A stretch of 64,000 nucleotides of DNA from Octopus vulgaris (taxonomy: Eukaryota), in NCBI GenBank assembly GCA_951406725.2, contig OX597825.1:53630001-53694000 (forward strand), written 5' to 3'. Under the pieces are notes generated by a model. That model saw only the letters and a list, made by a program, of their open reading frames with translations. It was not told the DNA's origin and did no database searches. The translations under genes were made by a program, and so were the position numbers. Of this stretch, positions 2,792 to 63,249 are shown in pieces (the stretch's first letter is position 1; every line of letters starts with the position of its first letter).

Positions 2792-3955
2792 TCGTGTCCA
2801 CTTTCTCTCTCTCTTCGTATACACACACATATATATGTATACATGTATACATATACATGTGTATAAATCTATATATATATATATATGTGGGAGTGTACTG
2901 TGTGTGTGTGTGTGTGTATGTGTGTTTACATGTATGTATATGTCTGTTTGTATATGTTTTCTTCCAATCAATAACTTTAGATACATTAAAGCTAAAGTTT
3001 TGTCAAATGAACAAATATCTACAGGGAGAATTAAAGGAAAAAAGACAAATTAAACACTAAAACAGGAAAACCAAAAAAAAAGCAAAATAACAAGACAATC
3101 TTACAATAATATAAAAGAAGCAACAAACGAAAATAATAAAATGATAATGACAGCAACAGCAATAACTGATAACTACAACAATATTGATAATAAAAATAAT
3201 AATAACCAAGGCTAGCAACAGAAACTTTGGCGATAATAATGTTAAAGTAGTGATAATAATAACAATCGTAATAAGCAAATGAAGAGGAGAAGGAGGAATC
3301 AAAAGAAGTATAACAAGAACAATAATAGAAATAATAATTATAAGAATAATGATGAAAGTAATGGAAAAGAAGTAAAACAACGACAATAACGCAGAGTTGC
3401 AATACAAAAGTTACGTTAAATGTAAGTTGAATAGAGTTTTCGATTAAAGTTTTCCCATGGGAGAACATTATTTAGCATTAGGTAAGGTAATGCACTTATA
3501 GTTCAAGAAATGAGTGATAAAAGTTTTAAGTGTAAAAAAATGTATTTGGTAAATGAAAATATATGGAAATTGTACCAAATGAAAGTTTTGGTATGGTAAC
3601 AGACAATAATGCGTTTAATGAAATAACTGTGGTGGTTAAGGAGGCTGATGGAGGAGAGAGAGAAAGACAGATGGACGTGAAATAAGAGAGTAAAGGCAAT
3701 AGCTTGATGGCAGAATAGAAAAAGGTCGAGGAGAGAGAGTTATGATGTTGAGGATGTTGAGGGTGGTGATTACGATGATGATCATGATGATGACCATGAT
3801 AGTTGTGCTAAAGACGAAGACATAGAAAGGAAGAAGAAATAAGACGAAGAGGAGAAGAAAAACAAAAAGAAAAGCACGAAGAGAAACAATATGAGGAGAG
3901 AACGAGAAAGAGGAGTATGACATTGGAAGGTGAAATAAGAAAATGCTTATGTGTG

Positions 3956-10193: not shown

Positions 10194-10735
10194 GCATAAG
10201 GGGCTTGAGGACATAAATTTTTGGGGTCATTGCTGCGTTTTTTACTAACACTGTACAATGTTTGTTTCAGAAAATAATAATGGCAGATCCTCAGCTTCCT
10301 CAAGAAATGTAGAGGGAAGCTGTTATTGTGGTTATAAAGGCTGAGTATAGCGATTTAGAAATACCTCGATTTTTAAATGTTGTTAGATTTTTCGTTTACA
10401 AATTTTGTAAGGAGCTAGAGACAGAAGATGAAAACGTATCACCGGTATGAAAACAGAAAACCCATTCTAAACACCGAAATCATCAGAAACACCTGAATTT
10501 TTCCAAAAAGTTCAACAGATTATTGATTACAATCCCAGAAAATCCATGAGGTCGATTGCAAAAGATTATCCATATGTCAGAAGTGACAGTCAGAAATGTT
10601 GTCCACGAAGACATCATGTATAAATCTTATATGATGGGCAAAGGTCAATTTGTCCCAAAAAGCAAAAGAAAGATCACTACATCAGATCTAAAATCCTTTT
10701 AAACAAACTGAAAAATCCTGCAGATTTGATTTGGT
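10189..10735 (+). mobile_element. Tc1/mariner-superfamily (maT/DD37D-like) transposon remnant, N-terminal transposase pseudogene
   Basis: Frameshifted translation AVIVVIKAEYSDLEI..FLNV..TPEF..KVQQIIDYNPRKSMRSIAKD..MSEVTVRNVVHEDIMYKSY (two HTH region); starts after TA. Confidence 0.75.
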
Positions 10736-10744
10736 TTTTCTCAA

Positions 10745-10908
10745 ACGAGTTTTCTTCGTGATCTCTGACTACTATACCTGGCCTATTGGCCTTAATTTCT
10801 GTATCTGTGTGTATTGGCATATCTCAGATTATGGTTGCTTTCTAGTTTTCTGTGACCTTATCTTTTTTCTGTTGTTATTCCATAGTGTTGGCACAGCTTC
10901 CAGTGTAT
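10745..10908 (-). mobile_element. R4/Dong-clade non-LTR fragment (zinc-finger/REL endonuclease region)
   Basis: Minus translation HWKLCQHYGITTEK..VTEN*KATII*DMPIHTDTEIKANRPGIVVRDHEE; 5' side abuts (TAA)n. Confidence 0.75.
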
Positions 10909-10987: not shown

Positions 10988-11014
<27 letters not shown>

Positions 11015-11018
<4 letters not shown>

Positions 11019-11090
11019 TCAATGCCTGGAATTGAACTCGAAATCTTGGAGTTAGCAGCACGCGCCTTTAACCACTACGCCATATGGGCA
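11015..11090 (-). other. tRNA(Ser)-like Pol III cassette of the PLE-associated family (pseudo-tRNA)
   Basis: TGGCGTAGTGGTTAA (A box), CTGCTAA anticodon-like loop, GAGTTCAATTCC (B box); homologous to 62022-62095 and 62526-62599. Confidence 0.75.
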
Positions 11091-11110
11091 TAATAATAAT
11101 AATAATAATG

Positions 11111-11208
<98 letters not shown>

Positions 11209-11269
11209 AAGAAGAAGAAGAAGAAGAATAGTAGTAGTAGTAATAATAATAATAATAACAACAACAACA

Positions 11270-11420
11270 ACATCGAAAAATACCTTAAGAATTAGAAACC
11301 AGGTTCGAAATTTCCCAAAGACACCTGATGAAGGCTGGTGGGTATGCCAACCGAAACGTTGTGTTAACAACAAACAAGATGAGGACAAACATGCGTCAAT
11401 TGTAAATAGTGTAAATAATG
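11270..11420 (+). mobile_element. Penelope-like pLTR 3' segment carrying a hammerhead
   Basis: Homologous to 61875-62002 (-) and 62620-62720 (+), which adjoin a PLE GIY-YIG ORF end. Confidence 0.75.
11320..11365 (+). ncRNA. Minimal type-I hammerhead ribozyme (C3-G8 core)
   Basis: gacac-CTGATGA-a-ggctgg(8 nt)ccaacc-GAAA-cg-TT-gtgtt; palindromic ACGT stem III, one mismatch in stem II. Confidence 0.75.
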
Positions 11421-11562
11421 AAAACAAGAATCCTTGTAACATTTATACCAGATCACTAGGCTCGAGTTCCATTCCATCATGCTCTGTGTGGGTATTAGAT
11501 TTAATATATCACCCAACTTACCATCACCAACTGGCGTATTGTATGATGTCCATGCTGTTGCA

Positions 11563-11865
11563 GTGGAGGCACATGGCCTAGTGCTTAAAGCAGCGGACTC
11601 GCGGTTGAAGGATCGCGGGTTCAAATCTCAGACCGGGCGATGTGTGTGTGTTTATGAGCGAAACACCTAAGCTCCACGCGACTCCGGCAGAAGGTAATGC
11701 CGAACTTCTGCTGACTCCTTCGCTACAACTTTCTCTCACCCTTTCTTCCTGTATCATACAGTTCACCAGCGACGGACCGGCTTCCCGTCCAGGTGGAGAA
11801 CATATACGCCAAGAAAACCGGGAAACCGGCCCTTATGAGCCACGCATGACTCGAGAAGGAACATG
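11563..11865 (+). mobile_element. tRNA-derived SINE, second family, sharing its 3' tail with the 5.5-kb SINEs
   Basis: GTGGAGGCACATGGCCTAGTG..GGTTCAAATC head; tail CATATACGCC..AACCGGGAAACCGGCCC..ATGAGCC. Confidence 0.8.
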
Positions 11866-12027
11866 CTGTTGGAAGTCCTCGGGTCAGTTCTCTGGTTTTA
11901 AGATAACTCTCTCTCTCTCTCTCACTTTCTCTCTCACTCTTTCTTTCTGCCTCTCTCCTTTCTGTCTCTCTCATTTCTGTCACTGTGTCTCATATATATA
12001 TACACACGCAAATACACACACACACAT

Positions 12028-23671: not shown

Positions 23672-24055
23672 CTAGCAGTATCGCCCGGCGTTGCTCAGGT
23701 TTGTAAGGGAATTAACTATAAAGCATTTTTAGAGAGTTATAGCCAAAAAATAGCAAAAAAATGGAAAAAAAATGATGGTAAATTTTTTTGAGAGTTAAAA
23801 AAGGTGGAGTTGCGTCCCCTAGACAGTTTGCGGTTTGTGTTTCGTTTTCTCGACCCCATGTCGAATTTATCGATTTTTTTCAGAACTGGGGGAACTTTTC
23901 AAAATTTTCGCTGCGTTAGTTTTGAATTATGACATTGGGCTATGTGTGTGTCAAGTTTCATCAGAATCGGTTGAAAGCCGTGGTCAGGGTGAGGGTACAA
24001 GAAAACAGACACACAGAAACACGCACAGACAAACTGCCGTTTATATAGAGAGAGA
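23672..24055 (-). mobile_element. Non-autonomous Helitron-like element
   Basis: Minus strand 5'-TC(TCTCTATATAAACGGC..GTCTG repeats) ... GAGCAACGCCGGG subterminal hairpin ... CTAG-3', inserted between A and T. Confidence 0.75.
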
Positions 24056-24621
24056 TTGTTATATTTCGGAATGGTCATTTTGCCAGTTTAGCCAATAAAA
24101 ACACACGCACTATATATTTGGTGTTACTTTGCTTCAGTGTTATTTATTTTTTACATTAATCTTAATCTTATTTCGGCCAGAGTTCTTTCGTCACACTCCT
24201 GTGACCGCATCACTGGTCCTTTGTTTTCTTCTCACTTATTTGTGTCTCTCCTTACTAACCGTCAGCCATTTTGTATTTCTATTGTATGTCTTCATTTGCG
24301 CATGCTTATATCTCTATGTGCGTTTATGTTTATTTAGTGTGTGTATGTGGGGGATGCCTGTAATATTTGTATCTTCTGTTTATATATGTTCATGTAATTT
24401 GTAATTTTATATGTTCATGTAATTTGTATTTTGTTTTTTGTTCTTTGTTTTGCTTTTTTTGTTTTTTTGTTTTTTGTTGTTAGTTTTTGTTTATTCTTAT
24501 TTTGTTCATGTGTTTACATCCACCCATTATTATCATTATATATGCTTGTATGTATGTATGTATAACAACAATACTAGTAATAATAATAAATTGAATCGAA
24601 ATACACAGATAAATAAATAAA

Positions 24622-24660
<39 letters not shown>

Positions 24661-24671
24661 ATATGTATATG

Positions 24672-24724
<53 letters not shown>

Positions 24725-25268
24725 TCGATTCAATTTATTATTATTATTACTAGTATTGTTGTCATACATACATACATACATACAAGCATATGTAATGATA
24801 ATAATGGGTGGATGTAAACACATGAACAAAATAAGAATAAACCAAAACAAACAACAAACAACAAAAAACAAAAAAAAACAAAAAAAAATACAAAATACAA
24901 ATTACATCAACATATAAAATTACAAATTACATGAACATATATAAACAGAAGATACAAATCTTACAGGCATTCCCCACATACACACACTAAATAAACATAA
25001 ATGCACATAGAGATATAAGCATGCGCAAATGAAGACATGCAATAGAAATACAAAATGGCTGACGGTTAGCAAGGAGAGACACAAATAATTGAGAAGAAAA
25101 CAAAGGACCAGTGATGCGGTCACAGGAGTGTGACGAAAGAACTCTGGCCGAAATAAGATTAAGATTAATGTAAAAAATAAATAACACTGAAGCAAAGTAA
25201 CACCAAATATATAGTGCGTGTGTTTTTATTGGCTAAACTGGCAAAATGACCATTCCGAAATATAACAA
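24056..25268. repeat. Large near-perfect inverted repeat (about 550-bp arms, TA-rich spacer); probable PLE pLTR fold-back
   Basis: 24056-24602 is the reverse complement of 24723-25268 with few substitutions and indels; mirrored ORFs in the ORF track. Confidence 0.9.
25105..25149 (+). ncRNA. Hammerhead-like motif with non-canonical core (mirror copy 24175-24219, minus)
   Basis: ggacca-GTGATGC-g-gtcaca(ggag)tgtgac-GAAA-gaac-TC-tggcc. Confidence 0.45.
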
Positions 25269-25324
25269 TATCTGTTTCAACACACGACTTCACATAAAAA
25301 ATCTTGCACAACAAATATTTAAAC

Positions 25325-61699: not shown

Positions 61700-61874
61700 T
61701 GTTAACATATACATATATGTGTCTGCGTGTAAAGACATACTATAGAAATTTACATACTACAACAGATTATTACATCTTATAAATGAAGGCAGTATGATTA
61801 ATTCAATTCCGGAGTTGAAGCTATTATAACGTAGATCAATGTAATCTGGTATTGTTAATGGATCATGAGTGATA

Positions 61875-62316
61875 CATTATTTACTTTTGATGGATATTTG
61901 TCCTCATCTTTTTTGTAGTTAACACATCATTTCCGCTGATATACCTTCTAGCATTCATCAGGTGTCTTGGACTGGCTTCTCAGTCCTTAGGTATTTTTCG
62001 ATATTATTATTATTACTATTCAGGTCGCTGCCTGGAATCGAACTAGGAATCTTAGGGTTAGTAGCCCACGCTCTTAACCACTTCACCATATGCCCGTGGG
62101 CAATTTTTGAGTGAATCTTAATATTTTCCTATCCTTCCTTAATACCGGTTCCCATATGCTATTCGTATTTGCACTCGATCTGCATAGGAGGTTGTTGTGT
62201 CCTAGTATATATGCTGCTTGTTTTAGTTTTCGTATTTCCAGTGGTGTTCTCTGTCTATTATTTTAACTTCATCCCAAAGGAGGAGGAGGTCTCCATTTTT
62301 CCATATATGATCACTA
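61875..62316 (-). mobile_element. Penelope-like 3' end: GIY-YIG C-terminus, tRNA-like cassette, (TAA)n, HHR
   Basis: Minus translation SDHIWKNGD..LWDEVKIIDREHHWK/RKLKQAAYILGHNN..NSIWEPVL; tRNA-like 62022-62095; acac-CTGATGA..GAAA..gtgt at 61921-61966. Confidence 0.8.
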
Positions 62317-62332
62317 CCCCCCCCCCCTGTTA

Positions 62333-62735
62333 GATGAAGTTAAAATAATAGACACAGACCACCAGTGGAAATACGAAAACAAAAAGAAGCAGCCCATATA
62401 CTAGGACACAACAACCACCTAAGCAGACTGAGTGCAGTTACGAATAGCATATGGGAACCAGTATTAAGGAAGGATAGGAAAATATTAGATTTATAAGCGC
62501 TAAGATTCACTTCACAATTGCCCATGGGAATATGGTGTGGTGGTTAAGAGCGCGGGCTACTAACCCTAAGATTCCGAGTTCGATTCTATGCAGTGACCTG
62601 CGTAGTAATAATAATAAAAACACCCCCAAAATACCTTATGATGAAGGTTGGAAGGTATATCAGCCGAAACATTGTGTATACAACAAACTAGATGACAAAT
62701 ATCCGTCAAATGCACATAATTCATCATCTCTTAAA
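62333..62735 (+). mobile_element. Inverted second copy of the PLE-tRNA-HHR unit
   Basis: DEVKIIDTDHQWK/RKQKEAAHILGHNNHLSR..NSIWEPVLRKDRKILDL* (stop 62494-62496); tRNA-like 62526-62599; TGATGAAGGTTG..CAGCCGAAAC at 62639-62670. Confidence 0.8.
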
Positions 62736-63249
62736 TCTGGAACTATTATTTATTTATATAAAATAAAGTTAAAATGAATTTTTTTCTTTTCGTTTATTAT
62801 TAGGCATAATCACTTCGTCGTAGAGGAAATAGCTTTTATCGTGTGTTGACTTACATTCTTTCCCTGACGGTATATCTAACATAAACGGTGCAAAATATGT
62901 GTCAAAGTGATGGAAACATATTGGAATTCTCAGTTGATCAAGCTAACACCAACTAGTGTTTAAAAGGTCGTATTCATTTCGCACAGAGTTACAATATCAC
63001 AGCGATATATACAAGGCCGTCGTGTACTTCAGTGATGTGATCAATGAGCAGAATGTAGTGACAGAAACATGAGATAAAATGTATGACTTCTAGACTTCTA
63101 TAAAGGTGAAGTGACCCACAAAAACCAGTGATTCTTAAACAGTTGGCCGAATCCCTTTCATAATTCTCTAAGAACCATACTGTCGAAGACCTATACTATT
63201 TCTGTGAATTTTTCGATTTCAATAACCAAGCTTGAATTTACAAACACAT

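Follow-up and report, generated by a model that had tools for sequence, protein, structure and literature searches.

A tRNA-derived, promoter-like head is a fixed part of the pLTR in a family of Penelope-like elements of Octopus vulgaris

Introduction

The closest described systems are the canonical Penelope-like elements (PLEs) with a C-terminal endonuclease, represented by PAc, a Poseidon element of Anolis (PMC11167929), and Penelope of Drosophila virilis (PMC2377424). According to the portions of these sources available to us, they share with the octopus family described here a single ORF for RT with a GIY-YIG domain at its C-terminus, partial tandems forming the pLTR, inverted 5'-truncated arms, two 3' ends (tail), a hammerhead ribozyme (HHR) overlapping the ORF start and a promoter region in the pLTR. 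PAc nicks ATT motifs on both strands and begins reverse transcription internally at two sites bounding the tail (Frangieh et al. 2024; PMC11167929), and its HHR lies at the ORF start, with uncleaved RNA being copied (PMC11167929). The promoter of Penelope is TATA-less, LINE-like and accompanied by an intron, and the available part of that source mentions no tRNA-derived origin for it (PMC2377424). The octopus family differs from both in that its pLTR begins with a tRNA-derived head carrying an A box and a B box, where the 5' ends of its copies pile up.

Several other systems resemble parts of this arrangement, as far as the available text of each source goes. HHRs in pLTRs are known in metazoan PLEs (PMC4209133), and tandem retrozymes derived from pLTRs have been described (bioRxiv 10.64898/2026.07.22.740005). 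These non-LTR retrozymes and non-autonomous Chlamys elements such as MRC1 (PMC8557442) are, like the stand-alone ("solo") copies of the octopus family, short, non-coding, related to pLTRs and moved by PLEs, but they are defined by tandem units, and no tRNA head or Pol III promoter is mentioned in the text available. Sm-alpha of Schistosoma is a Pol III SINE with an HHR (PMC6765202, PMC8490949); Sm-alpha and Sj-alpha have, as here, a Pol III-type promoter followed by a hammerhead, but Sm-alpha is non-coding, is often in tandem and cleaves as multimers, whereas here the cassette lies in the pLTR of an autonomous PLE and the solo copies are not in tandem. An octopus repeat annotation contains Penelope and many unclassified SINE families, and its library may contain this family, although the part available does not describe this layout (PMC13282606). 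Related earlier background is found in parts of PMC7761336 and PMC6962438.

Finally, tRNA-derived SINEs have the same A/B-box head with a microsatellite behind it and 5' ends a few bases in, but the 3' end and insertion marks of this family are PLE-like, with no TSD and no separate lineage. Octopus examples of such SINEs include OK, OR1 and OR2.

Results

An inverted pair of PLE 3' ends

Within the window (the whole 64,000-nt stretch of Octopus vulgaris DNA analysed), the locus at 61870-62744 is an inverted pair of 5'-truncated PLE 3' ends. The two arms, 62316-62726 (+) and 62290-61870 (-), are divergently oriented and 77% alike over 439 alignment columns, and both run in the order GIY-like peptide, tRNA-derived head, (TAA)n, HHR motif and tail.

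62316..62496 (+): 5'-truncated PLE ORF end (C-terminus of the GIY-YIG region, frameshifted), stop at 62494-62496; family copies reach the RT
62520..62600 (+): head of tRNA origin, with the inferred RNA 5' end at its first G (62520), an A box at 62533-62543 and a B box at 62576-62586
62604..62618 (+): (TAA)n spacer; this copy has lost most of the linker found after it elsewhere in the family
62627..62676 (+): hammerhead motif of the minimal type-I kind, here with damage
62677..62744 (+): PLE tail, ending near the distal one of the family's two 3' ends
62110..62310 (-): inverted arm, PLE ORF end, native stop lost through a 15-nt deletion
62018..62101 (-): inverted arm, head of tRNA origin whose A box begins at 62088 and B box at 62045
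61920..62017 (-): inverted arm, (TAA)n followed by a shortened linker and a hammerhead motif with damage
61870..61919 (-): inverted arm, tail, ending near the proximal 3' end

The original prediction, made from the sequence alone, had given both copies the same order; the layout is indeed common to both arms, except for the native stop, which the deletion has removed from the minus arm. The type-I hammerhead that it had proposed is present as a motif in both arms, but each copy is damaged, the plus arm by a 3-nt insertion at the start of the core and a change in helix III, the minus arm by changes in helix II. The upstream peptide, read there as a GIY-YIG C-terminus, is the C-terminus of a PLE: RVT_1 lies upstream in family copies, the matching clusters are of the HTH_animal/GIY-YIG kind, and the plus-arm peptide at 62395-62487 is identical at 15 of 27 positions to the C-terminus of an 806-aa relative. 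Elsewhere in the window, positions 24038-25286 form a long inverted repeat whose 454-nt arms are 93% complementary and 341 nt apart.

The head and HHR had also been reported to recur at 11015-11420. Head and HHR/tail are both found there, but they lie on opposite strands and in a different order.

11012..11089 (-): head between two (TAA)n runs
11259..11420 (+): linker, then a hammerhead with an intact core and a weakened helix II, then tail

We infer that this is a single insertion with an internal inversion at a (TAA)n run. Nearby, at 11560-11870 (+), a further SINE-like element of tRNA origin also has A and B boxes. Its resemblance to the family head is weak, its tRNA-like head at 11574 (+) scoring 54, compared with 119-142 for the family heads. 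The segment at 10270-10750 (+) resembles by eye a decayed Tc1/mariner transposase.

A canonical EN+ PLE family

Exact patterns searched through the 2.8 Gb genome gave 421 matches for the head start, 1,500 for the B box and 2,232 for the HHR, with 0 for each reversed control, so the family far exceeds chance. Scaling such counts by the exact fraction in unselected samples (11/94 for the HHR, 10/92 for the head) gives an estimate of roughly 19,000 HHRs and 14,000 heads, and divergence from the commonest letter is about 6% across the family.

This is a canonical EN+ PLE, with an RT ORF, a C-terminal GIY-YIG region, a pLTR formed by partial tandem, an inverted arm and a tail. Copies extend upstream into the RT (RVT_1, E=2.5e-10 in L140) plus an N-terminal region, and relatives with a single RT ORF are 806 and 768 aa long. 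Family stretches, including L138 and L045, gave no direct Pfam match to GIY-YIG; the top ESM Atlas clusters for the C-terminus (0.96-0.97) are 90-98% HTH_animal and 13-19% GIY-YIG, the relative P0107 is annotated as a predicted GIY-YIG endonuclease, and the Y-I-P-C-x-C...E-H...H motifs align. Of 1,538 candidates, 611 proved to be relatives of the C-terminal 300 aa, with identities of 57-69% for the best, and one protein named from Octopus sinensis is 77% identical.

At 16 of 30 ORF-start loci, the sequence immediately upstream, on the same strand, is HHR and tail; it is by such a partial tandem that the pLTR of PLEs is formed (PMC8557442, in the part available). An inverted arm stands upstream of 48 of the 92 B-box-anchored copies, and in 80 of 83 copies a 9-nt tail repeat varies by complete units. 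Five copies span the region from linker to ORF. In two of them a linker ATG keeps its frame across the HHR and on into the ORF (one with a single stop, the other shifted by an internal deletion), and the other three are frameshifted. As separate observations, loci L015, L016 and L121-L124 on contig C17 are near-identical duplicates of the same PLE copy with its flanks, and L247 holds, in a 3-kb stretch, a cluster of seven tRNA genes or pseudogenes of the Cys type, one of them called as Ser(act).

The head is fixed in the pLTR

A search with the GIY region only found a head match after 25 of 30 loci, about 22 nt downstream; four further copies retain its start before deletion or decay, and at least the head start is thus kept in 29 of 30. 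In L052, the GIY 3' end is joined straight to the linker with no head, either a deletion or an ancestral empty site. A search with the RT only, which returned 30 loci (three breaking off before the GIY region, four near-duplicates), found the head in 25 of the 27 that reach the GIY region. The original prediction had taken the head for a family feature, and both selections bear this out. Independent SINE insertion at this locus is ruled out by the fixed position of the head and the lack of a TSD; in 13 copies without an inverted arm (12 solo and one GIY-linked), the longest word shared by the two flanks averaged 4.9, compared with 4.7 in mismatched pairs.

The commonest letters of unselected heads spell out intact A and B boxes. 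Among ten tRNAs of this genome the best match was Arg(TCG), with a score of 62 against a shuffle maximum of 43, followed narrowly by Ala (59) and Arg(TCT) (58). The head is not a foldable tRNA: ARAGORN called 0 tRNA genes there, and Rfam reported neither tRNA nor HHR at the gathering threshold or at E<=10, where its matches were miRNA models lying on the inverted repeat. For three HHR copies and three head copies, folding as single strands gave z-scores near 0.

Copies begin at the first G of the head

The 5' ends were read in 92 B-box-anchored copies, from the first 90 listed of the 1,500 B-box matches, all on contig C1 and with a few duplicates. Sixty-five begin within -12 to +12 of the first G, 19 at +14 to +50 and eight beyond -100 in the ORF, and none of the 92 begins at -13 to -100. 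Truncations within the ORF are evenly spread, with 29 GIY-anchored ends over 1,400 nt and no wall. The commonest single boundary is +6 (10/92), not 0, and two copies that run into the ORF (L196 and L211) begin at +4. Heads linked to an ORF made up 8 of the 92 B-box-anchored copies, 9 of 30 heads extending to the first G in a second sample, and 6 of 19 copies with a head among 30 that were HHR-anchored.

Junctions between a tail and an ORF provide additional evidence. In 30 of the 54 such loci, four ORF-to-head joins fall exactly on the first G with no fold-back (L472, L480, L488 and L496), two of them after A-rich runs, and two further ORF-to-G joins are likely but mutated. The ORF fragments of the four exact cases end at varied places and are probably jumps onto truncated, A-tailed RNA ends. 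The 5' wall and the four exact chimeras therefore put the RNA 5' end at a point 13 nt ahead of the A box. On the evidence of these copies, a defined RNA start at the tRNA head appears well supported. Pol III usually starts about 13 nt before the A box.

The main rival to a defined RNA end is a truncation hotspot, in which no RNA ends at the head and a short palindrome causes cDNA fold-back or truncation on a long PLE RNA. Such a palindrome does sit at the head start, the wall coincides with it, many junctions there are fold-backs, seven of the 65 wall copies (-12 to -8) are fold-back palindromes mimicking upstream sequence, and inverted arms are normal in PLEs (PMC8557442, in the part available). 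Many wall junctions and the four ORF-to-G chimeras, however, show no fold-back, and RT would already have copied the hairpin on reaching the wall, when its stops would usually precede a hairpin; we consider this explanation quite unlikely. A 5' end made by RNase P, cutting the tRNA-like head from a long transcript, would account for the commonest boundary, since +6 is the position aligned to tRNA base 1. It is very improbable, given that no cloverleaf was detected and that the exact joins are at 0, six bases upstream.

Solo copies resemble short products of the PLE RNA

Stand-alone head-HHR copies, which the original prediction had proposed to look for, do exist, begin at the head and outnumber the ORF-linked heads. 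Of the 92 heads, 71 are followed by linker and HHR, and none of these runs into the ORF. Their 3' ends are bimodal, 37 lying at reference positions 139-158 and 29 at 182-201, about 45 nt apart. The copies start at the head, not at the HHR cut site, and retain 50-110 nt past that site. A direct-repeat unit within 450 nt upstream was found in 0 of the 92, and direct neighbours are rare (L103, L453). At L103:650-1700 there are three direct linker-HHR-tail copies without heads and with unrelated sequence between them. Solo heads (186) and GIY-linked heads (105) share their commonest letters, their tails diverge by 5.6% and 6.3%, and the letters that differ lie at CpG sites selected by the B-box pattern.

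A self-propagating, PLE-dependent SINE, whose solo RNAs are made by Pol III and re-copied in trans without circles, would be in keeping with the excess of solos over ORF-linked heads and with the presence in solos of both boxes and no shared T4 before the tail end. It is nevertheless an unlikely reading: solos have no letters of their own and diverge like GIY-linked copies, the PAc template needs about 55-60 nt beyond the RT start sites (PMC11167929) that solos are missing, and the chimeras show RNAs running into the ORF. The separate SINE lineage suggested earlier thus finds no counterpart in the commonest letters or in divergence.

The earlier suggestion of a short RNA that cleaves itself and circularises fared no better against the start at the head, the 50-110 nt kept past the cut site and the missing upstream units. 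In its retrozyme form, with the short RNA copied as a circle, it could draw on an HHR that is intact and minimal by commonest letters and on the existence of pLTR-derived tandem retrozymes; the absence of direct upstream units (0/92), copy ends that fall at head and tail instead of the cut site, and the inability of minimal HHRs to cleave as monomers (PMC4209133, in the part available) make it extremely improbable. Because the solo copies have the alleles, the age, both 3' ends and the inverted arms of the PLE and were seen in no tandem arrays, we read them as short PLE RNA products. From these features, solos look like short products of the PLE's own RNA and belong neither to a separate SINE lineage nor to a circular retrozyme.

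The hammerhead motif

The commonest letters of the family give an intact minimal type-I HHR core with GUU as the cleavage triplet. Pairing of its helices is found in 91.5% of cells, compared with 21-56% when the frame is slid, and covariation is not above that of shuffles. The core, helices I and II and a palindromic helix III are those of a minimal type-I HHR, with putative self-cleavage. In the available part of the source, the minimal type-I HHRs of metazoan PLEs share with this family the conserved core, an extra base between positions 9 and 10.1, G10.1-C11.1, a short helix I, a palindromic loopless helix III and dispersed single motifs (PMC4209133); the family differs from them in its GUU triplet by commonest letter, and activity of this variant is putative. 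A spliced intron across the HHR was also considered and rejected, as the frame would break and no such joint appears among the RNA joints listed. RNA-seq gave no circular joint at the cut site among the 15 joints listed out of 56.

Evidence bearing on Pol III transcription

The sense strand has no T-run shared by the family: TTTT (T4) is the commonest word at 0 of 2,522 columns and AAAA at 37, and in three tiles covering the pLTR and ORF no T4 site is common to 30% of copies, compared with 37 A4 sites. Over the 2,522 columns, 5.7 T4 are expected with independent letters and 2.9 or 2.0 under Markov models. A pooled third-position null over 639 codons expects 4.8 (P(0)=0.003); when codon usage is kept, 0.1-1.2 are expected per stretch, none of which is significant, and GGGG is also absent from these columns. 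The control PLE ORFs (39 distinct and mutually related ORFs from 79 metagenome loci, after short and redundant ones were dropped) contain 113 T4 in 52,689 nt (O/E 1.02), while 30 copies of the family contain 16 in 40,296 nt (O/E 0.19). Four of the 39 controls have no T4, including, over their aligned part, two of the six longest, which have no head. The T4-poor sense strand is suggestive but not decisive and would fit Pol III reading of the ORF.

Three RNA-seq runs from 2026, of which about 6% each was used and which may be of related species, gave a coverage of about 3,000-fold over the pLTR and about 10-fold over the ORF start, with the two strands equally represented, and 69% of the reads continue into unrelated flanks. 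No pile-up of starts or ends was listed for these reads, and they show no discrete transcript. Reads from both strands that run into flanks fit passive transcription, a pattern compatible with the presence or the absence of a Pol III RNA. The family has decayed (~6%) and may no longer be transcribed.

A Pol II origin of the RNA 5' end, from a TATA-less pLTR promoter with the head as a relic of a SINE captured long ago, has a precedent in the internal, LINE-like TATA-less pLTR promoter of Drosophila Penelope (PMC2377424, in the part available), and a capped RNA would explain translation from the in-frame linker ATG. It would, however, leave as coincidences both the T4-poor sense strand and the layout of L332 (below), and its distance of 13 nt between the start and an intact A box is the one that Pol III usually keeps; we regard a Pol II origin as unlikely. 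The tRNA-derived head is, on present evidence, likely the Pol III promoter of the PLE pLTR, with short copies arising by RT of the first few hundred bases of the RNA, a reading to which we give a probability of roughly 0.6. That Pol III made the RNA start at the head is likely to the same degree.

Under the Pol III reading, the polymerase would begin at the first G, which lies 13 nt ahead of the A box, and would cross head, HHR and tail to enter the ORF. AT-rich DNA would be nicked by the PLE protein, and RT would begin inside the RNA at either of two tail sites, which has been shown for anole PAc, run off at the first G and sometimes fold back on the short palindrome or jump to another RNA end. 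A start at the first tail would give a solo head-HHR-tail copy, and a start at the later tail of a tandem would give an ORF-bearing copy; the HHR would have been uncut in the RNAs that became copied. As RT from the first tail of a head-starting RNA would already yield a solo copy, neither a SINE lineage nor a circle is needed. Other copies, read through by Pol II, may supply the protein in place of an uncapped Pol III RNA.

A similar layout in a second PLE

L332 is a distant PLE in a perfect head-to-tail tandem with a 2,791-nt unit, 36% identical to P0127, a close relative of this family. An A box and a B box lie 87 nt after the aligned ORF end, followed by a short (AAT)n and a minimal HHR, and the whole segment, which stands between ORFs at L332:2741-3075 (+), is repeated one unit away. 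T4 occurs twice in each unit and T5 not at all. Once L332 had been seen, a strict A/B pattern was set; it matched 1 of 55 control loci and 5 in 100,000 resamplings. In a quick tree with no named reference proteins, where it sits on a long branch, L332 was not sister to this family. About 40 nt after its HHR, at 268-283 and 3059-3074 (+), is a look-alike of the histone-type 3' stem-loop (Rfam Histone3, 15.9 bits, below the cut-off), which holds one of the two T4 runs of the unit.

A more far-reaching proposal is that Pol III transcribes the whole ~2.9-kb RNA for RT and endonuclease from a captured tRNA promoter, that the ORF has been purged of T-runs and that this arose at least twice in PLEs (in this family and in L332). 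We consider it possible but doubtful.

Discussion

A PLE whose pLTR has a fixed tRNA-derived A/B-box, promoter-like head is new, and this head is real and family-wide. No PLE with a tRNA-derived pLTR promoter was found in the literature searched, with subscription papers, Repbase and Dfam lying outside the search. To our knowledge, Pol III is the polymerase of non-coding SINEs, and Pol II or read-through is assumed for autonomous retrotransposons. This line between Pol III SINEs and Pol II autonomous elements would be blurred by a PLE that has a tRNA promoter in the pLTR, and SINE-like repeats could be shed directly by a PLE through internal initiation of RT. In addition, automatic annotation could label some of the roughly 14,000-19,000 copies as SINE and others as Penelope. 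The case of L332 suggests that more PLE pLTRs with A and B boxes exist, and a defined RNA start bears on two questions of PLE biology, namely where transcription starts and what role the hammerhead has.
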